The notes: generated from the letters alone by a model not told the origin. Positions 28,374 to 56,228 are shown, numbered from the stretch's first letter. The stretch: DNA of 64,000 nucleotides from Promethearchaeota archaeon (GCA_019058015.1 JAHLWH010000091.1:1241-65240), one strand, 5' to 3'. Numbers and translations: made by a program.

Positions 28374-28784
28374 TTAAATACTTGCAAGATTTTTTAATTC
28401 TGTCAGGGAGTTTTCCTCTGCCCAGTCAAGTAATTGGTCATAATATTTCTCAATCTCTTGCGATTCAGGAACGGGCGCAAGAACTGCTAAAATAAATAGT
28501 GTTTTCTCTATTTCAATATTACGGCAGATTATTAAAAATTCCTTAAAAAGAACTTTAATTGATTCTAACTCGGATTTGAGTGAGAGTTCTTCCCCTACTT
28601 TACTTGCAGTATCACTCAGAAGACTTCCCATGGCTGCAACAACAGCTTCATCTACATCGGGTTCTCTCTGAGATGCAAGTACTAAACCCGCTGATGTGCT
28701 AAATAAAGAAGCTCTAAATCCAGCATTTTCATTTAATTCTTTTAATATAAGATCTAAGCGACCCGGAATTTCTAAAACCTCTAT
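28374..28784 (-). CDS. Roadblock/LC7 (MglB-like) domain protein; start codon unresolved
   Basis: The track ORF (28374..28631) starts at an internal Met. The frame is open upstream to a TAA at 28791..28793 and encodes (I)EVLEIPGRLDLILKELNENAGFRASLFSTSAGLVLASQREPDVDEAVVAAM, which is the conserved N-terminal half of Roadblock/LC7. There is no in-frame ATG, GTG or TTG there. The 5' end given is an ATA codon (28784..28782). Confidence 0.6.
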   Translation of the reverse strand: MEVLEIPGRLDLILKELNENAGFRASLFSTSAGLVLASQREPDVDEAVVAAMGSLLSDTASKVGEELSLKSELESIKVLFKEFLIICRNIEIEKTLFILAVLAPVPESQEIEKYYDQLLDWAEENSLTELKNLASI

Positions 28785-28870
28785 TCTCTTTTAATTTGTT
28801 AAAATTTTTATGATATTAATTATATGTTTTTTCCAATTATATAAATTTTTATATACTTATTCTGTAAATT

Positions 28871-42360: not shown

Positions 42361-42433
42361 AGAAAGTCCCGAAATTTTCCCTTAAATTGTTAATAAAAAT
42401 GTTTTGAAATAAAAAAAGCTTTAGGCTAAAAAA

Positions 42434-43033
42434 TTAAATTGAATTATCCTTTTTTTCTGCACAAAATTGACAATAAATTAGCTCTTTTGGATAATAATTT
42501 CCACAAAATTTGCATTTTATTAGAGAATTTTTTAAAATCTCTTTACCCAGCTTTACAAAGATTGACTCGACATTGTATCCCGTTTTAGAGCTGCATTCAA
42601 TTACTTTTCCCTGAAAATCATATCTACTAAAAAAATTCAAGACATCTTTGTTAGAAAGCTGTCTAATTTCTTCTAAATCAAGTTTGGATCCAATTAATAA
42701 TTTAGTATTGGGAGGATTAGGACTATTATTAATAATCTCAAGCCAATTTTCTAAATCTTCTAATGATTTTCTGTTGGTAATATCATACAAAATTAATGCT
42801 CCCGATGCACCGCTAACATATGACGGAAAAAGGGTTCGAAATTTCTCTTCACCTGCAAAATCCCATATGTTAAGTAAAATCACACTATCTTCCACTACAA
42901 CCTTCTTCGTCTCAAAATCAACTCCTATTGTTGATTGCGTCCCTATATTAAATTTCCCAGTACAGAATCTTCTGATTAAGCTTGTTTTACCTACTGCCTT
43001 TGCTCCCGCAACCACTATCTTAAATTTAATCAA
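42434..43033 (-). CDS. Rab/Ras-like small GTPase with C-terminal zinc ribbon
   Basis: G1 is GAKAVGKT, G2 is STIGVDF, G3 is WDFAGEE, G4 is GSKLD and G5 is SSKTG. The C-terminus is CKFCGNYYPKELIYCQFC (aa 174-191), with no CAAX or CC prenylation motif. Confidence 0.85.
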   Translation of the reverse strand: MIKFKIVVAGAKAVGKTSLIRRFCTGKFNIGTQSTIGVDFETKKVVVEDSVILLNIWDFAGEEKFRTLFPSYVSGASGALILYDITNRKSLEDLENWLEIINNSPNPPNTKLLIGSKLDLEEIRQLSNKDVLNFFSRYDFQGKVIECSSKTGYNVESIFVKLGKEILKNSLIKCKFCGNYYPKELIYCQFCAEKKDNSI

Positions 43034-43154
43034 TGTGAAATTTTAATTTTCTTTTTTTAATACAATTTCGTTATAAATAAATGAAATCAATTAATTTATT
43101 ATTTCTTATTAAAATTGATGAATTTGAAAGAAATTTCTATAATTTGAATTATTT

Positions 43155-45693: not shown

Positions 45694-48600
45694 TTAATTT
45701 TCAGTAAAATACAATAAATCCATAATAGATAAATTATCTGGAATCTTTATACCTAAGACTTTACATTGTTGAATGATATAATTCCTAATTGGTTCAAAGT
45801 TTTTAAAAGTATGAATATAATAGGGGATTTCAACTAAAGTAACATTATTTCCTTTACACCTTTTCCTTTTAATTCTACTATTTGCTAATTGTTTTTCAAA
45901 TTCTTCCCTAGTTTTATGATAATAATTTGGAAATTCATAATGTTGAATCCCATGATATTCAAAAGCTATACTTAATTCTTCACAATATCCATCAAGATGT
46001 AATCTATTGCCTTCTTCATTAATTAACCAATGGGGACTTAATTTTGGAAAATTTTTTTTAAATATTTTCTCAAAATATTCACGACAGTTATTTTCACTAC
46101 GACCATAGGAACATTCTGGACACCAATGACCTTCTGTAACATCATTAGGCTTCATTTCAAATGTATGCCCCTTACTACATTCCCACATTAATTTTGTCCT
46201 ATTATTAATATATATTTTTGAAACACATATCCCCCTTTTATCTAATTTCCTCGCAATTAGTTGCATTCTTTCAATATTTCGTTTATTATATTCTTTTTTT
46301 AAATTATCTAATGCCTCTAAAGATTGTTCTTTATTCTTTCCAGATAATTTTTTATTTATTTTATTTTCTAGTTTTTCAATGGTTATGTTTTTTAAGAATT
46401 TATATGAATGCAAGCATTTATTTACATCAATACTAAATTCTAATCCTAATTCGTAATTGCTAATAAATTTCTTATTTACTTCTCTTGAAAAAGCTGTTGA
46501 TAAAGTATCAAAAAATTTTCCCTCGATAGCATTTGCGTTCTTATCTTCAGAATAAAAAGTATTTAATCTTTCTAGTGTTTTTAAAGCTAACTTCTTATTT
46601 TTTCCCGATAAATTCCTTTCTATAGAGTCAATAAAACATCTTAAACTATCATTAGAAATTTTTGAATTATTTTTTAAAGACCGTGTTATATCTAAATTTA
46701 GAATATTTCCCAATTCCTTATTATTTATGAATCGACTTTTTTCATTAACAAAAGCAACACGTAATACCTCAAAAAATCGACCTTCAAGAGATTTTTCGAT
46801 TTTATCAAAATTTTTTTTCTCTTTTAAAGAATTTAAAAGATCTATAGATTTTCTCTTGACATCTCCAGTTAGATATTTATTTATATTATGTTCTATTTCT
46901 TTAATTGTATCATATCTAATTTTCACATTATACTTGGAACACCGATGTATTATTTGATATATATTTCTTGTTATTTTATTTTTATAACCTAGAACATTTG
47001 AGAAGTTTTTACGAATTTTTTTCAATACATCTAATGTGAGTGAAATATCTTTATTTTCAATATTTTCATTTCTGTTTATGTTAGGTCGCATTTTCTTATC
47101 CGACATAACTTCATTTATATATTCTTTATAAGTTTTTCCTAATTTTTTTTTTAACCATTCACTTCTTATATTTTGGAAATATTTTTCTCTTAACCCTTGA
47201 AATTCACTTAAATTTTTAACATTTACAAAATTAATAGAAACTTCCACCTCTTTTTTTAAAAGAGAATATTTTTCATCAAAAAAATCAAGTAATTTCGATT
47301 TTATAGATTTTTTTTCCTCTGATTTAATAGAATTCAAATAATATTGTTCAATAATATAATTAATTTTTCTCCAATCAATCTTAAGTCCTATATTATTTGC
47401 AATTTCTTGTACTTTATTTATATCTAAATTGCAATACTTCAATTTATAGGCAATAAATTTTTCGATTTCCTTATTTTTATTAATGTTAATACATTTTATT
47501 CTTAAACCATTTTCGACCTTTTTATTATAATTTACCCAATACAAAAATTTTTTTGTAAGTCTTAGACCATAATTAGCATTTTTTTTAAAGATTTTTTCAT
47601 ATTCTATAAATATTTTTTGAACTCCTTTATCCATCAAGTTTGTAAATTCCAATGTTTGTTTTAGTTTAATATCCAATTTCGATATCATTTCTTTTTCGTT
47701 GGTTATATTTTCATTTATGTTTTTAAAATCCGAATTTTCTTTATCTATGATATTTTCTTTTTTATTACAATTAATTTCTTCATTTGTTTTTCCAATTTTT
47801 GAAATCGTTTTTTTCTCCACACTAATAGAATTTTTATCTAATGTTTTATCTGATTTTTTTTCTCTAGGAATATTAATGGGAGTTCCATGTGAGCCAGATA
47901 ATTCTTCAATTTCATTTTCAATCTCTCTATTTTTATAATCATTTGGATGCCCTTCTGTGATTTCGTGTGATTTATTATTATATTCATCTAGAACTTCTAT
48001 TTCTCTTGTCTCCTTTTCCAATTTTTCTTTTTCTAAATTATAAATTTTATTACAATATTCCTGCTCTCTTTCCCGTAAATCCAGAAATTCTTTTTTTAAT
48101 TCTCTATTTTCTTTCCTTAAAATTTGATTCTCTGAAATTTCAGTTTCATCAATATCTTTGTAAATTGACTCTGCGAATATCTTGATCTCTATATTATTTT
48201 CCTTAGCAATTTTCTCAATAGTACCAAAACTTATTTCCAATCCTGTATGTTTTTCATAGTCTGAAATAAATTCTAACGGATTATCCTTATTATAAAGTAC
48301 ATCAATTAAGAATTTATCAAATAAATGTTTCTTGTTTATCAGATCACATTTTTCTAAAAGACTTTCTCTATAATGATCAATGACCCCATCGTCTAATTTC
48401 TCAATGTATTCCTTGAACTCTGGTCTTATTTCTGTACCCTTATTAGCAGATATTTTCTTTTCTATAGAAAACTCTTCTAGATACATCTGCAATATGAAAT
48501 CCCCAAAAACTTCAATAGTTTCTTTTCTATACTCTTCGATTTCTTTTTTAGTAATTCCCTCGTGGACCTCTTCTTTTTCTTTATCATCTATCTTTTCTTT

Positions 48601-48990
48601 AAGTTTTTCACTTTTAATATCCTTTGTTTCATCATTTGCCTTTTCTTTATCTTTATCCTTCAATTCTTCTTGATGTCTATCATTTTTTCCATCTTTAGTT
48701 ATTCTCTCATCAATTTCTTTTCTTTTTTGGCTTTCTTCCTCTTCATTCAGTTTTTTCTTCTCTTCTGCTTCTTCTTTTAGCCTTTCTAAATATTCTTTCG
48801 ATTCTCGCTTCTCCTTTTCATCTTGTTCCTTTATCATTTCTTCAAGCTCTTTTTTTTTTAATTTTTCTTCAGAAATATCATCTTTTCTTTCTTGAGGTCT
48901 ATCTTCTATTTTCTCCTTGGGTTTTTCCTTTATTTTTTCTTTAGGCTTCTCATAATAATCTTTACCGCCCCAATCACTACCAAACTCCAT
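45694..48990 (-). CDS. Orphan 1098-aa modular protein: K/E-rich N-terminus, HTH-like helical modules (three tandem ~87-aa repeats), C-terminal zinc ribbon plus Vsr/PD-(D/E)xK-like domain
   Basis: This is one uninterrupted ORF. Aa 1-160 are charged and low-complexity (KEKIKEKPKEKIEDRP...). Aa 648-905 hold three tandem related modules. Aa 931-960 read WECSKGH...HWCPEC. Aa 997-1017 read LHLDGYCEELSIAFEYHGIQH. All antisense ORFs in the track here are shadows of the purine-rich coding strand. Confidence 0.7.
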   Translation of the reverse strand: MEFGSDWGGKDYYEKPKEKIKEKPKEKIEDRPQERKDDISEEKLKKKELEEMIKEQDEKEKRESKEYLERLKEEAEEKKKLNEEEESQKRKEIDERITKDGKNDRHQEELKDKDKEKANDETKDIKSEKLKEKIDDKEKEEVHEGITKKEIEEYRKETIEVFGDFILQMYLEEFSIEKKISANKGTEIRPEFKEYIEKLDDGVIDHYRESLLEKCDLINKKHLFDKFLIDVLYNKDNPLEFISDYEKHTGLEISFGTIEKIAKENNIEIKIFAESIYKDIDETEISENQILRKENRELKKEFLDLREREQEYCNKIYNLEKEKLEKETREIEVLDEYNNKSHEITEGHPNDYKNREIENEIEELSGSHGTPINIPREKKSDKTLDKNSISVEKKTISKIGKTNEEINCNKKENIIDKENSDFKNINENITNEKEMISKLDIKLKQTLEFTNLMDKGVQKIFIEYEKIFKKNANYGLRLTKKFLYWVNYNKKVENGLRIKCININKNKEIEKFIAYKLKYCNLDINKVQEIANNIGLKIDWRKINYIIEQYYLNSIKSEEKKSIKSKLLDFFDEKYSLLKKEVEVSINFVNVKNLSEFQGLREKYFQNIRSEWLKKKLGKTYKEYINEVMSDKKMRPNINRNENIENKDISLTLDVLKKIRKNFSNVLGYKNKITRNIYQIIHRCSKYNVKIRYDTIKEIEHNINKYLTGDVKRKSIDLLNSLKEKKNFDKIEKSLEGRFFEVLRVAFVNEKSRFINNKELGNILNLDITRSLKNNSKISNDSLRCFIDSIERNLSGKNKKLALKTLERLNTFYSEDKNANAIEGKFFDTLSTAFSREVNKKFISNYELGLEFSIDVNKCLHSYKFLKNITIEKLENKINKKLSGKNKEQSLEALDNLKKEYNKRNIERMQLIARKLDKRGICVSKIYINNRTKLMWECSKGHTFEMKPNDVTEGHWCPECSYGRSENNCREYFEKIFKKNFPKLSPHWLINEEGNRLHLDGYCEELSIAFEYHGIQHYEFPNYYHKTREEFEKQLANSRIKRKRCKGNNVTLVEIPYYIHTFKNFEPIRNYIIQQCKVLGIKIPDNLSIMDLLYFTEN
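46276..47049 (-). repeat. Three tandem ~87-aa protein-level repeat modules inside the 1098-aa ORF
   Basis: Repeat anchors are spaced 87-88 aa apart. One set is LTGDVKRKSIDLLNSLKE (aa 707), LSGKNKKLALKTLERLN (aa 794) and LSGKNKEQSLEALDNLKK (aa 882). Another is LEGRFFEVLRVAF (aa 735) and IEGKFFDTLSTAF (aa 822). A third is NNKELGNILNLDITRSL and SNYELGLEFSIDVNKCL. Confidence 0.6.
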
Positions 48991-50854: not shown

Positions 50855-53800
50855 TTAGGCTTCTATTATCGGTAGAGTAAAATAAAATTCAGTTCCTTTG
50901 TCTTTTCCTTTTGAAGTTCCCCATATTTTTCCACCATGTGCTTCCACAATTCCTTTTGAAATATAAAGCTCAAGTCCTAACCCCTTTTTTCTATTGATAT
51001 GATCAGCACTCTCTTTCTCAATTACTTCAAATTTTTTGAATAATTTTCTAATATCATGAATATTCAACCCTTTACCGTCATTTCTAACTTTAAACAGAAA
51101 TTGATTTTTAATCTTTTTGGCTGAGATCTCGATATTGCCACCATTCAAAGTGAATTTTACAGCATTTAAGAATAAATTAGAAAATACTTCATAAATTCTA
51201 TTGGGGTCAACTTTCAGATATAAATTTTTTTGAACATCTACAATAACATTAAGTTTTTTATCGTTTATTTGAAAACTTAGTTCTTCAACGCAATTTTCAA
51301 TTATATCGTAGATATTTTTTTCCTCTCGGATTATTTCCATTTTTTTTGCATCAATTTTCATTACATCTAATAATTTCTCGATTAAAAGATTTAATCGCTG
51401 AGAATTTTTTTGGATAAGTAAGAGATCTTTCCTGATTTCAAAATCCAACTCTTTATTATGTGTTAAAATATAATCTGTATACCCCGTGATAGAAACCATA
51501 GGTGTTTTTAATTCATGAGCTGCAATTGTAATAAAATCATTTTTTAACTCATCCAATCTCCTTAATTCAATATTCTGCTTCCTTAATTTTTCTTCAGATT
51601 TTCTTAATTTCTGCTCTGCCAACTTCAAGTTGCTAATATCATCAAAAGTTCCTAATACCTTGATGGTTTTTCCTTCTTGATCTAATGTTGGGACCAATTT
51701 AGATCTAAAGAACATAGACTTCCCCCATTTCGAAATGTAAGGTCGCTCAGAACTGATCTTTCGATTTTCCATTATGCACTTTTTAAAATCAGCGGAAATT
51801 CCTGCCTTCATTAAAAGAGGAAAAGTTAAAAGATTAATCTTTTTAGTAGCTTCTTTAGAAGGAGACCCAAGGAGTTTAAGGGCACTTGTATTGACATTAA
51901 GAATGTTTCCATTGACATCACAAGTCAAGATTCCTATAGGTGCTTCATCAAAAAGTGTTCTATATTTTTCTTCTGATTCTTTTATTTGTTGTTCTGCTTC
52001 TTTACGGTCAGTAATATTTCGTATGAAAATTGCAACTTGTTCCTTAGAAAAAAAGAGAAGTCGTGCTTCGTAATACTGATCTTTACTTTTCATGGGAAGA
52101 CAATATTCTAAAATTTGTGGTTGTTTCGAGCTTATTGTCTTTGATACATATTCTTTAGCCATTTTTCCAAGTTTAAAAGGTAATAAGTTACTCAGTTTTT
52201 CACTAAGAAACTGTTCAGGAGAAATAAAAAATTCTTCCCTTTTTCCACGATAATCTATTATGGTAGTATTCTCATCAACAAGAAAGAATAAATCTGGAAT
52301 TGATTCAAAAATTTGCCTGAATTTTTTTTCAGATTTTTCCAATTCTTTAGTCCTTTCAATTACCTTATTTTCCAATTCTCTATTTAATTTTTTTAATTCC
52401 TTCTCAGCTACTTTCCTTTCTGTTATGTCTTGAAGTATTACTTGAATAAGTTTTTTCTCACCTAATTTCACTAAAGAGATATGTAAATTTATCCATACTA
52501 AAGAACCATCCTCAGTATAGCCAGGAATTTCAATAGTAGGTGTAATCATCCCTCCGAGGATCTTCTTAATTCTATCTTCGAATAAATCTTGGAGCTCAGA
52601 TACCTTAAATAACGGTATAATTTCTTTATAATTCTTATTTAATATCTCTTCTTTTTTAATTTCATATAATTTTTCAATAGTCGAATTACTTTCTATAATG
52701 TTTCCCTTTGTATCTACTAATAAAATTGAAAAAGGTGAATTCTCAAATAAATGTCGATATTTTTCCTCAGATTCTTTTAATTTTTCTTCCGCTCTTTTCT
52801 TGTCAGTGATATCTCTTAATAATGTAATAAAACCTACTACATTCCCATTTTTATCATAGTAATTTTTAGAGGAACTTGATAACCAAATATAATGGCCATC
52901 TTTATGTAATGTTCGAAATTCAACTTCACATTTTTCTAAAACTTGTTTTTGTCTAATGGCTTCAGAAAAAAACTTTATTAAATCTTTAAGATCATTTGGA
53001 TGAATTTTGTCAAATAAATTTGATTTAAGATTAATTTCTCTTCCCATCATTTTAGAAAGCTGAGGAGAAACAAATTTATATTTTCCATCAAATCCAACAA
53101 TTACTATTGCATCCTTCGAATTTTCGATAATATTTCTATATTTTTTCTCGGATTTCCTTAATTTTTCTTCCGCTATTTTCTTATCTGTGATATCTTCCGT
53201 GTGAACTAAAACCAAATCTGGAGGAACAAAACCGTAATTAGTTAAAAGATATTTTTTTTTATTTGTACTTTGATAATAATAAAATATTTCACGAGAAATA
53301 TTAACTCTGTCTTTAATACAACGATATAATTCTTCTAAAATTACCGGTTGATCCTTATATAATTCAGACGCTTTAATTCCTAAATAATTTTTAATTTTAC
53401 TATCAGTTATTTTCTCAGAAGCATTATTATAATCAATTAATACGAGATCATTACCATCCTTTTGCCATGTGTATGTAGGGATTGGGATTCCCTTATAAAG
53501 TGCTTTAAATCTCTCTTCAGATGCTTTTAACTTTTGTTCTGCTATTTTACGCTCAGTAATATCACTAATTATACATCTTACACCCGAAATATTTCCTTCT
53601 TTATAAGTCTGTTTAGAATGAATTCTAGCATAAAAGGTGGTTCCGTTCTTTTCTTTCATTAAATATTCCCGAGGTTTAGGTATTTCACCTTTAATTAATT
53701 CTCTAAAATTTTGCATTACTCTTTCTTTTTCCTCAGGAGCAAACATTTCAAGAGCATTTAAACCTCTGTTAATATCTTCCTGAGAATAGCCAAATTTTTC

Positions 53801-54769
53801 AAATCCAATTTGATTAGAATAAGTTATATTAAATTTAGGACCAACCTCAAAAATAATATCAGGCAATAATTCAACCAATTCTCTATGTTTTTTTTCGGAT
53901 TGTTTCAAATTCTGTGTTCTTTCATCAATTTTTTGTTCTAATTCCTTATTCAAATTATTCAATTTTTTCCCGGATTCTTTTAATGCAATTTCCATTTCCT
54001 TCTTATAAGTAATATCTACTAACGTTATAAAATCTGCAGGTTTTCCTTGATATAAAATTGATCTGGAATATACATCAATATATTTTAACTTTCCAGACTT
54101 TGTGAATATTCTACAAGAATATTGTGTTGCAACGTCTGTTTCTCCGGCTTGTTTTTTTTTTGCTTCATCTACTATAAATGATAAATCATCAGGATGAATA
54201 AATCTAATAAATTCCTGCATTGATAAATCTTTAATTTCTTGAAAAGGACGACCACCAATCTTCGCAGCAGTTTCATTTACATATTTAAAAACACCATCCT
54301 GAAGAATAATAATTCCCATTAATGATTGTTCAGAAATTGATCTGAATTTAGATTCTGATTCTTTTAATTTTTTCTCAGAGTTCTTTCTTTCGGTGATATC
54401 ATTTGCAATGCCCAAAATTGCGTAAATTTCTCCATTTTTTTTTAATGGAATTCCATAGGACTCAACATATATAAAATCGCCATTTTTTGTTTTAAGTTGA
54501 TATTCGCTACGTTTAGATTGTTTGCCATTTTCTCTGAGTTCTTTAATAGTGTTTAATGCATCTACTATTTGACCTTTATCAATTAAATCTTTAAAAGAGA
54601 GATTTGGAATATCTTTTCTCTTATATCCAAGCGTTTCTAATGTAACATCATTTGCATCAATAAAATTTCCCTTTAAATCGTGAGCATAAATTAAATCTAA
54701 GGAATTCTCAAATAACGCTTTATATTCTTTCCTAATCTCAGCTCCATCATATGCCATTTTTATCCTCAA
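50855..54769 (-). CDS. Multi-PAS sensor histidine kinase (eight PAS/PAC units + HisKA + HATPase_c)
   Basis: Eight PAS units are delimited by recurring linkers: DITERK, DITDKK, NITDRK or DISNLK followed by AE.KL+.SEEK(Y/F)R. The H-box is ITIAAHELKTPMVSITGY, the N-box is NLFLNAVKFT, G1 is RNDGKGL and G2 is GLGLELYISKGIVEAHGG. Confidence 0.9.
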   Translation of the reverse strand: MRIKMAYDGAEIRKEYKALFENSLDLIYAHDLKGNFIDANDVTLETLGYKRKDIPNLSFKDLIDKGQIVDALNTIKELRENGKQSKRSEYQLKTKNGDFIYVESYGIPLKKNGEIYAILGIANDITERKNSEKKLKESESKFRSISEQSLMGIIILQDGVFKYVNETAAKIGGRPFQEIKDLSMQEFIRFIHPDDLSFIVDEAKKKQAGETDVATQYSCRIFTKSGKLKYIDVYSRSILYQGKPADFITLVDITYKKEMEIALKESGKKLNNLNKELEQKIDERTQNLKQSEKKHRELVELLPDIIFEVGPKFNITYSNQIGFEKFGYSQEDINRGLNALEMFAPEEKERVMQNFRELIKGEIPKPREYLMKEKNGTTFYARIHSKQTYKEGNISGVRCIISDITERKIAEQKLKASEERFKALYKGIPIPTYTWQKDGNDLVLIDYNNASEKITDSKIKNYLGIKASELYKDQPVILEELYRCIKDRVNISREIFYYYQSTNKKKYLLTNYGFVPPDLVLVHTEDITDKKIAEEKLRKSEKKYRNIIENSKDAIVIVGFDGKYKFVSPQLSKMMGREINLKSNLFDKIHPNDLKDLIKFFSEAIRQKQVLEKCEVEFRTLHKDGHYIWLSSSSKNYYDKNGNVVGFITLLRDITDKKRAEEKLKESEEKYRHLFENSPFSILLVDTKGNIIESNSTIEKLYEIKKEEILNKNYKEIIPLFKVSELQDLFEDRIKKILGGMITPTIEIPGYTEDGSLVWINLHISLVKLGEKKLIQVILQDITERKVAEKELKKLNRELENKVIERTKELEKSEKKFRQIFESIPDLFFLVDENTTIIDYRGKREEFFISPEQFLSEKLSNLLPFKLGKMAKEYVSKTISSKQPQILEYCLPMKSKDQYYEARLLFFSKEQVAIFIRNITDRKEAEQQIKESEEKYRTLFDEAPIGILTCDVNGNILNVNTSALKLLGSPSKEATKKINLLTFPLLMKAGISADFKKCIMENRKISSERPYISKWGKSMFFRSKLVPTLDQEGKTIKVLGTFDDISNLKLAEQKLRKSEEKLRKQNIELRRLDELKNDFITIAAHELKTPMVSITGYTDYILTHNKELDFEIRKDLLLIQKNSQRLNLLIEKLLDVMKIDAKKMEIIREEKNIYDIIENCVEELSFQINDKKLNVIVDVQKNLYLKVDPNRIYEVFSNLFLNAVKFTLNGGNIEISAKKIKNQFLFKVRNDGKGLNIHDIRKLFKKFEVIEKESADHINRKKGLGLELYISKGIVEAHGGKIWGTSKGKDKGTEFYFTLPIIEA

Positions 54770-55085: not shown

Positions 55086-56228
55086 TTAGAAGCACCTATG
55101 GATCACTTGAGGCCCCATTTCCTTATATTCTCGCCTAGTTACCCACATTCTATGGAATGTTTTAAGAGATGCGAGAATGGAGCCACCAATCCATACAGAA
55201 TACATTCTTTCTGGAGGAGCTATAATTTTAACGTCAACACTTTCAGGAATTTGTTCTTTTATTTCCTTGGTCAATCGTTCTTTTAACCCTGGATACATTG
55301 TAGAACCACCAGAAAGCACGATATTTCCATAGAGATCTCTTCTTAAATCGACATCACATTCAGAAATTGACCCTACTATAATATCATCCATGGGCTCCAA
55401 TTCTTTACCAATCACGGATGGGTTAAACATGCATTCAGGTGCAAGGAATCTCTCAACTCCAACATTAATTGTTTCACCATCGGGTAACATATAGGATTTT
55501 TCCATACCTGCTACTTTCTTTGAAAGCATCATTTCCTTTTCCGGATCGACAGCTACATAGCATAATTTCTCTTTAATGTCTCGCACAATTTCTTTTTCAG
55601 CTGAAGTTGTAAATGCATAACCTTTTTGTCTCAATAATCTTTGCAAGTAATTGGTGATGTCTCTACCAGCAAGGTCAATTCTTTGAATTGCATGGCTTAA
55701 GGCAAACCCTTCGAATATTGGGACAACGTGTGAAACACCATCTCCAATATCTATAACACACCCCGTGGTACGACCAGAGGCGTATAGAGATAATACTGCT
55801 TGCATTGCAACATATAATGCAGGAACATTAAAGGTTTCAAACATTATTTCAGCCATTTTTTCTCTGTTTGGCCTTGGGTTTAATGGTGCTTCAGTTAAAA
55901 GTACTGGATGTTCGCTAGGATCGATACGCAGATCGGTATAAAAGGTATAATGCCATATTTTTTCCATAGCGGTCCAGTCTTCTATAATACCGTGCTCGAC
56001 AGGAAACATTAATTTGAGGACGCCTTTGAGTTGTAATGCTTCTTCCCCAATATAATACTCTCTAGTATAGTGCTCTACATCCGTCATTATACTTTCGTAT
56101 TTAGGATATCCTATAAGCGTTGGAAATACGGATCGTGGCTGATCTTCTCCAGCAAAACCATTCTTTGAAATACCAGTTCCATTATCTACGACCAAGGCTT
56201 TAGCGGAAAGAAAATCTTCTTCAGACAT
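55086..56228 (-). CDS. Actin (Asgard 'lokiactin'-type, eukaryote-like)
   Basis: 380 aa. [85 protein letters not shown] is near-identical in pattern to eukaryotic actin ([77 protein letters not shown]). Also present are N-terminal VVDNGTG and C-terminal [12 protein letters not shown]. Confidence 0.95.

Follow-up and report, generated by a model that had tools for sequence, protein, structure and literature searches.

How the Rab- and Ras-like GTPases of Asgard archaea get positioned without prenylation is an open question, and it is the question raised by a gene in a 64,000-nucleotide stretch of DNA (hereafter the window) from Promethearchaeota archaeon (GCA_019058015.1, JAHLWH010000091.1:1241-65240). 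The gene (42434..43033, on the minus strand, as are all window features given below) has a TTG start and a TAA stop and encodes a RasL/Rab-like small GTPase of 199 amino acids with a predicted C-terminal zinc ribbon. On balance we lean towards seeing in it a functional RasL switch, in which the ribbon would act as a docking module and Lys12 and Glu62 would shape the active site; our confidence is high for the identity of the protein and modest for the mechanism. Judging from the sequences, its subfamily combines four traits: a C4 ribbon attached without a linker, Lys12, a Glu at the position of the catalytic Gln, and an NKxD motif that has lost its Asn.

The protein is a Ras superfamily small GTPase in which all of the motifs G1-G5 were located, the deviations being Asn to Ser in G4 and Gln to Glu after DxxG. 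Pfam Ras (PF00071) matches it with E=2.3e-42 and 144.8 bits against a cut-off of 21.6 bits, and the only NCBIfam model to match is the generic TIGR00231 (73 bits versus 42.5). Eukaryotic Rabs (Rab6/Ypt6, Rab43, Rab5, Rab8) are its best matches in both sequence (34-39% identity) and structure. The closest PDB sequences found with HMMER are Ypt6, Rab43 and Rab6 (E=7e-36 to 1e-33). An AlphaFold2 (AF2) model computed from a 55-sequence alignment (mean predicted local distance difference test score, pLDDT, 89.3; predicted template modelling score, pTM, 0.84) was matched by Foldseek to Rab5c, Rab43 and Rab6 in the PDB, with a root-mean-square deviation of 1.4-1.7 Å over ~165 residues and a template modelling (TM) score of up to 0.94. 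The Rab/Ras-like assignment made in a preliminary description of the locus is thus borne out by the Pfam match and by the Rab-like fold.

Motif coordinates, checked by translation, place the G1/P-loop GAKAVGKT at 42983..43006, with the codon of Lys12 (which, numbered directly, corresponds to Gly12 of Ras) at 42998..43000; Thr35 of G2/switch I, inside a RabF1-like TIGVDF that aligns with the TIGVDF of Rabs, at 42929..42931; the G3/switch II motif DFAGE at 42848..42862; SKLD, which replaces NKxD as G4, at 42677..42688; and the SAK-type G5 motif SSK at 42584..42592. In HMMER alignments to Ypt6 and Rab43, WDFAGEE faces WDTAGQE, which makes Glu62 the Gln61-equivalent residue, and GSKLD faces GNKSD; on both points the alignments agree with the preliminary description. 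In a 121-sequence alignment the string W-D-F-x-G-E, including Glu62, is invariant (121/121), as are Thr35 (121/121), Ser148 and Lys150; Lys12 and the Ser34 that precedes Thr35 are each present in 120/121 sequences, and the first position of G4 is Ala, His, Ser or Thr, with Asn found once (1/121). The active-site ligands K16, T17, T35, D58, G61, K117 and D119 are invariant or nearly so among orthologues. The near-invariant Lys at the Ras-Gly12 position had gone unremarked in the preliminary description. Position 13 is Asn in 74/121 orthologues and Ala in the window protein, and we considered whether the family might be a cation-dependent or HAS-GTPase with a P-loop Asn13. Such GTPases, as reportedly set out by Ash et al. 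2012 and Mishra et al. 2005, have the P-loop Asn of GxxNxGKS and a hydrophobic residue for the catalytic Gln. The idea was rejected, as the window protein has Ala13 and its Gln replacement, Glu, is not hydrophobic.

The ribbon is the second element. It comprises LIKCKFCGNYYPKELIYCQFCAEKK (42449..42523), and its four cysteines, Cys174, Cys177, Cys188 and Cys191, fall within 42461..42514, which by translation reads CKFCGNYYPKELIYCQFC, as previously placed. The protein ends in ...CQFCAEKKDNSI and has no CC, CxC, CCxx or CAAX motif. The pattern is C174-x2-C177-x10-C188-x2-C191, with all four cysteines present in 121/121 aligned sequences and a spacer of 10 residues in 280/281 ribbon-bearing sequences; the cysteines are thus conserved among orthologues, a point on which the preliminary description had made its reading depend. 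Averaged over the ribbon-bearing set, the net charge of the ribbon is +2.35, and it has ~3 aromatics. In the AF2 model helix alpha5 (155-170) is followed immediately by the ribbon strands (171-173 and 180-182, pLDDT about 83-85), leaving no flexible linker between the two. As confidently modelled, the ribbon therefore takes the place of the hypervariable, prenylated tail, in line with the earlier proposal of a ribbon instead of a lipid tail, and a role in localisation or partner binding seems reasonable on this model.

None of the solved GTPases found with Foldseek in the PDB covers the ribbon, and no Pfam or NCBIfam model covers the combined GTPase-plus-ribbon architecture. The Pfam families that do recognize the ribbon are generic (Zn_Ribbon_1, DZR, DUF7575): on DUF7575 (PF24460; cut-off 28.5) the orthologue P0015 reaches 29.2 bits and the orthologue P0042 29.1 bits, and P0042 also passes Zn_Ribbon_1 (PF13240; cut-off 25) with 26.4 bits. 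The consensus of the RanBP2/NZF-type finger is also CxxC-x10-CxxC, with a signature Trp and Asn. This candidate was rejected, since the ribbon has neither the Trp nor the Asn and Pfam gives no zf-RanBP match.

How widely are these traits shared? A protein search over 5.8 billion sequences returned 1498 matches for the window GTPase, of which the best 120 are 189-218 amino acids long, 61-97% identical and cover ~97% of the query. Two more searches enlarged the set to 278 distinct ribbon-bearing proteins, with 41 ribbon-less proteins as comparators. Among the 278, Lys12 is present in 269, the Glu in 277 and a G4 residue other than Asn in 272, whereas Lys12 occurs in 0/41 of the comparators. Since Glu62, the non-Asn G4 and the fixed Cys spacing are conserved across the ribbon-bearing relatives, they are not due to chance. 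Many ribbon-less relatives, found in a search of 1.84 billion representatives, also carry WDF[AG]GE and [STGA]KxD, and WDFAGE or WDFGGE turns up 80 times in the Helarchaeales and Lokiarchaeales portion of the supplementary table of Vargova et al. (bioRxiv 10.1101/2024.02.28.582541), with the repeated sequence in each row counted as well. Therefore, the Glu and the loss of Asn characterise a larger Asgard RasL group. The preliminary description was right that both are present, with the correction that neither is special to this protein: they are common to many ribbon-less Asgard-type sequences. The ribbon and Lys12, by contrast, mark what appears, with moderate support, to be a sub-clade with at least two paralogues inside the wider RasL group.

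In a neighbour-joining (NJ) tree of the G-domain columns, the ribbon-bearing sequences were monophyletic in 41/60 bootstraps once four rogue or fragmentary sequences had been removed; as long as such sequences were included, the Glu-type and ribbon clades did not come out as strictly monophyletic. The ribbon family groups with prokaryotic sequences of the WDF type, apart from those with DTAGQE, NKxD and CC tails, in an archaeal- versus eukaryotic-type split that recurs in only 14/60 bootstraps. Orthologues occur in 80 species-level genomes at 60-97% identity, and the nearest genomes (91-97%) are metagenome-assembled genomes (MAGs) of Promethearchaeia, equivalent to the class Lokiarchaeia. The GTPase (60-67% identity) is better kept than the neighbouring Hef (55-60%). 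From these sequences it appears to be a distinct subfamily of Lokiarchaeia, under purifying selection and with a single copy per paralogue. Submitter labels are of little help in judging its breadth beyond Lokiarchaeia, with Thor, Heimdall, Hermod, Odin and Hod contradicting one another for identical proteins. One 67%-identical orthologue with the full synteny block was deposited as 'Candidatus Nanopelagicaceae bacterium' (DATKTW010000106.1, locus L016), and this record is likely a mis-binned or mislabelled MAG.

Members of the family have in fact already been catalogued as 'RasL' in a published table. Five Asgard proteins, KKK42647.1 and KKK46057.1 (Lokiarchaeum GC14_75), OLS12963.1 (CR_4), and TKJ19981.1 and TKJ21420.1 (Loki_b32), carry the label 'RasL / tree' in the part of that table covering these lineages (bioRxiv 10.1101/2024.02.28.582541); the first four are orthologues of the window GTPase and TKJ21420.1 is a paralogue. 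The RasL grouping is that of Klinger et al. 2016, and Vargova et al. adopt it and state that no Asgard sequences are specifically sister to Rabs (bioRxiv 10.1101/2024.02.28.582541). Their RasL alignment ends ahead of the ribbon, and their main text makes no mention of zinc. Asgard RasL proteins have a G domain nearest to Rab, Ras, Rho and Ran; most of them differ from the present family in having neither the ribbon nor Lys12. Full-text literature searches, whose coverage stopped short of subscription papers such as Klinger 2016, turned up no account in which the ribbon, Lys12 or Glu62 is described for RasL.

Compared with eukaryotic Rabs, the window GTPase has no flexible hypervariable tail and no prenylation motif, and it differs in the Gln to Glu and NKxD Asn to Ser exchanges and in Lys12. 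Pereira-Leal & Seabra 2000 are said to have defined five RabF motifs, IGVDF, KLQIW, RFRSIT, YYRGA and LVYDIT. By direct reading, the window protein has IGVDF (5/5 identical), LLNIW (3/5), KFRTLF (2/6), YVSGA (3/5) and ILYDIT (4/6). Two features of a Rab sensu stricto, the prenylatable Cys tail and the Gln of WDTAGQE, are both missing. Thor-Rab (PDB 7EZB), a Rab-like GTPase from Asgard archaea, likewise consists of a single domain and has no prenylation tail, and its intrinsic GTPase activity is slow and comparable to that of Rab11B (Tran et al. 2024, PMC10933270). It differs in that its C-terminus is truncated and bears no ribbon, and it lies outside the top 60 PDB matches of both the window GTPase and a ribbon-less Glu-type relative. 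Among the 74 MK-D1 GTPases surveyed by Tran et al. 2024, none was reported with terminal cysteines and no ribbon was mentioned; Asgard Rab-like proteins lack prenylatable tails, and homologues of REP and RabGGTase were not found (PMC10933270). An archaeal small GTPase system involving a zinc-ribbon protein has been described in Euryarchaeota, namely ArvA/ArvB/ArvC with the ribbon protein ArvC (PMC10927574). There, however, the GTPase ArvA resembles Arf and has an amphipathic helix at its N-terminus, and the zinc ribbon is encoded by a separate gene of the operon rather than fused to the GTPase; ArvA homologues are found in 8/183 Asgard genomes (PMC10927574).

In the account we prefer, the ribbon, which is basic and rich in aromatics, would replace the lipidated tail and serve constitutively as a docking module, whether for a protein, a nucleic acid or an anionic membrane surface; this is proposed because it would sit at the pole that in Rabs carries the prenylated tail, opposite the switches. 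Switch I and switch II would stay free for effectors in the GTP state. Lys12 may occupy the space that an arginine finger needs, so that classical Arg-finger GTPase-activating proteins (GAPs) would be excluded. Hydrolysis could then proceed intrinsically, in which case Glu62 would position or activate the water while Lys12 would neutralise charge; alternatively, it could need a non-classical GAP, for which Rheb (Arg15) and Rap (Thr61) are precedents. With the G4 Asn gone, nucleotides are probably bound less tightly and exchanged faster. Ras N116 mutants are the basis for expecting looser nucleotide binding when the G4 Asn is lost.

Several points weigh against this account. The mechanism and the docking role are deduced from sequence and model for every member of the family. 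The ribbon's position, at the G-domain pole opposite the switches, is deduced from the known Ras topology, in which the end of alpha5 lies opposite the nucleotide site. The window protein's own ribbon stays below every Pfam zinc-ribbon threshold (13.6 versus 28.5 bits for the isolated tail), and a 30-sequence ribbon profile searched against all of the PDB retrieved only CxxCG knuckles, without a functional lead; the matches were C2H2 designs, bL32 and Nop10, with E from ~1e-4 to 0.2 for whole sequences and single knuckles at chance level. Support for the ribbon clade is moderate, comes from NJ, and drops to 5/40 bootstraps if the four rogue or fragmentary sequences are kept. Finally, the competence of Glu is disputed: one paper cites Ras Q61E as having increased intrinsic GTPase activity (PMC2987813), for which reason we do not regard the Glu as simply a loss, whereas Der et al. 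1986, as summarised in PMC6813200, found hydrolysis by Q61E reduced.

The reduced hydrolysis of Q61E also speaks for an alternative in which the protein is a pseudo-switch locked in the ON state. Here the Gly12 to Lys and Gln61 to Glu exchanges would leave negligible hydrolysis, as in Rnd and RhoH, and the protein would be a constitutively GTP-bound adaptor governed by its expression or by ribbon-mediated localisation. The near-invariance of Lys12 and Glu62 fits with it, and so does the loss of the G4 Asn, which also departs from canonical cycling. Nonetheless, the ligands of Mg2+ and of the gamma-phosphate, the switch Thr and the Gly are all invariant, which suggests that cycling is maintained, and it is specifically Glu rather than any residue that is fixed in 277/278 proteins, which argues for a chemical role; the raised activity cited for Q61E points the same way. 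We consider a locked-ON adaptor unlikely.

Could a partner complete the active site instead? The preliminary description had taken the loss of the Gln to imply dependence on a GAP that donates catalytic residues, for example of the Roadblock/MglB type, and had pointed to a Roadblock-like gene in the window. The general idea has some appeal, as Asgard genomes are rich in Roadblock and longin proteins (bioRxiv 10.1101/2020.10.19.343400), MglB is a Roadblock GAP (PMC3199381), and Asn-thumb GAPs can serve GTPases in which residue 61 or 12 is atypical, Rap and Rheb being examples (PMC2265111). MglA/MglB is indeed a prokaryotic Ras-like GTPase under the control of a Roadblock dimer, with mglA adjoining mglB, but MglB contributes no catalytic residues and MglA has its own Arg53 and Gln82 (PMC3199381). 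At these two positions the ribbon family has Ser34 and Glu62, and it has no Roadblock neighbour. The Roadblock-like open reading frame (ORF; 28374..28784) is open for 137 codons after a TAA at 28791..28793 and lies 13.6 kb from the GTPase gene. It reaches 17.7 bits on Pfam Robl_LC7, below the 23-bit cut-off; its first ATG, GTG or TTG is at residue 52 (28631), and a Roadblock-like N-terminus would need ATA (28784) or another non-canonical start. Across 97 related loci, a tblastn search with this ORF found no homologue within ~6 kb of the GTPase gene, and the Pfam listings of the genes neighbouring the GTPase contain neither a Roadblock protein nor a conserved neighbour that looks like a GAP. 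The proposed partner thus finds no backing, and the argument from a lost Gln is not supported, in that MglB donates no residue and Glu is not simply a loss. That the GTPase is catalytically incomplete and finished by a trans-acting GAP seems to us rather improbable.

For the active site, the better analogies than MglA/MglB would appear to be Rheb and Rap: Rheb has Arg15 at the Gly12 position, Rap has Thr61 instead of the catalytic Gln, and both use Asn-thumb GAPs (PMC2265111). The parallel is partial, as Rheb keeps Gln64, Rap keeps Gly12, and neither has the Glu or a zinc ribbon. Rheb and Rap are, moreover, farnesylated or geranylgeranylated. No gene resembling RapGAP or TSC2 came to notice here, though no search aimed at one was made.

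Another question regards the genes around the GTPase, whose order we counted over 80 species-representative genomes. Upstream, 78/80 have the helicase-ERCC4 nuclease Hef in the same orientation, and in 53 of the genomes it is no more than 250 nt away. Downstream, 77/80 have a UXS-like NAD epimerase, again in the same orientation and in 70 genomes no more than 350 nt away, with DUF1616 and then two TldD/PmbA genes behind it. The whole conserved block reads GNAT, Rpb6, Hef, GTPase, UXS-like epimerase, DUF1616, two TldD/PmbA and adenylosuccinate lyase. An unrelated class-III aminotransferase on the opposite strand stands between Hef and the GTPase in 25/78 related genomes, and elsewhere a small ORF does. 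A 44%-identical ribbon-bearing member has another gene context with no Hef nearby. An operon of Hef, GTPase and UXS was considered and rejected, because of the unrelated insertions, the functionally mixed block and the distant member without the synteny. From the AT-rich spacers and the T-runs after the stop codon, we read the arrangement as a conserved syntenic block in which the GTPase is transcribed separately.

A second ribbon-bearing group (group B) has GAKDVGK[ST], WDF[AG]GEE, TKIDL and CxSCGEVFNKKLKNCQYCG followed by a short tail; in more general form its ribbon reads CxxCGExFxKKLKxCxYCG. In the same genomes its gene lies 4-6 kb from the group-A gene, beyond Hef, often beside a gene of the metallo-beta-lactamase fold (L004:96-707, minus strand; L095:5001-5606; L097:4278-5612; L042; L062); it is absent from the window. 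In L097 the GTPase genes are in tandem, one of 207 amino acids first and then the ribbon-bearing P0277.

The vicinity of Hef invites a nucleic-acid role, in which the basic ribbon would bind DNA or RNA and the GTPase would work with the adjacent Hef in the processing of stalled forks. Besides the position of Hef, the second ribbon-bearing paralogue on its other side and the basic character of the ribbon are consistent with such a role, as are the nearest, albeit non-significant, PDB matches of the ribbon, the RNA-binding ribbons of bL32 and Nop10. Yet the entire block is equally conserved and functionally mixed, the aminotransferase parts Hef from the GTPase in many genomes, the 44%-identical ribbon-bearing member lacks Hef nearby, and the PDB matches are at chance level. 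Of the explanations weighed here, we give this one little credence and hold it to be very unlikely.

Within the window itself, the 121-nt spacer between Hef and the GTPase (43034..43154) is AT-rich, with TTTATTTATAA ~40 nt upstream of the GTPase start; it probably holds the gene's own promoter, although TATA-like strings are not significant in DNA of 29% GC. On the other side, the 73-nt spacer between the GTPase and the UXS-like epimerase (42361..42433) has runs of T6 and T7 directly after the stop codon that may act as termination signals of the archaeal kind.

The start of the gene deserves a comment. An in-frame TAA lies four codons ahead of the TTG, and the N-terminus MIKFK(I/V)VV is kept in the orthologues, most of which begin with ATG. 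In the public records the nearest relatives (P0001, P0343-P0356) are called as 193 amino acids, from a GTG at codon 7 (43013..43033 in the window). Because MIKFK is conserved across orthologues, the upstream TTG or ATG start is favoured over the GTG call, and the 193-amino-acid gene calls are a recurrent miscall of the start site in these AT-rich MAGs. Among the loci L010-L089, the codon aligned to Met1 is ATT or ATA, rather than ATG, TTG or GTG, in 22/88 loci; this probably reflects an alignment offset or an N-terminal extension, true non-canonical starts also being possible.

Farther along the window, the block departs from that of related genomes in two places. Hef and the Rpb6/RpoK gene are separated by the gene for a Lys/Glu-rich protein of 1098 amino acids with a C-terminal DUF4379 treble-clef zinc finger (45694..48990), which may be a lineage-specific or mobile insertion. 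A multi-PAS histidine kinase of 1304 amino acids (50855..54769), located between the GNAT gene and an actin gene, stands where related genomes have the group-B GTPase, the metallo-beta-lactamase and a leucine-rich repeat protein. The actin homologue is of the lokiactin type (55086..56228; Pfam Actin E=1.8e-133); together with the Promethearchaeia MAGs as nearest genomes, it confirms the Asgard archaeal source that had been surmised. A lokiactin-type gene is also found near the block in L095.

Food for thought is what such a GTPase would mean for the biology of these archaea. In Asgard Rab-like GTPases no membrane targeting was seen and no prenylation machinery was found (Tran et al. 2024, PMC10933270), and an invariant ribbon exactly at the site of the lipid tail makes this subfamily a concrete test object for lipid-free positioning. 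Additionally, Lys12 and Glu62 occupy the two positions whose mutation activates oncogenic Ras, which raises the question of whether a Ras fold can work with Lys and Glu in its active site. Should the ribbon only stabilise the fold and the enzyme be an ordinary slow GTPase, the family would be a minor architectural variant. At the other end, and speculative to a degree that makes us rate its chances as low, is the thought that these proteins are Asgard timer GTPases independent of both GAPs and guanine-nucleotide exchange factors, in which a rigid ribbon docks the switch, without lipids, on a particular membrane-associated or nucleoprotein partner, Lys12 is a 'finger' in cis, Glu62 is the general base and nucleotide affinity is weakened for want of the G4 Asn. 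If true, they would represent a class of Ras-like switches not described in eukaryotes or bacteria, and possibly an evolutionary precursor state of Rab targeting.

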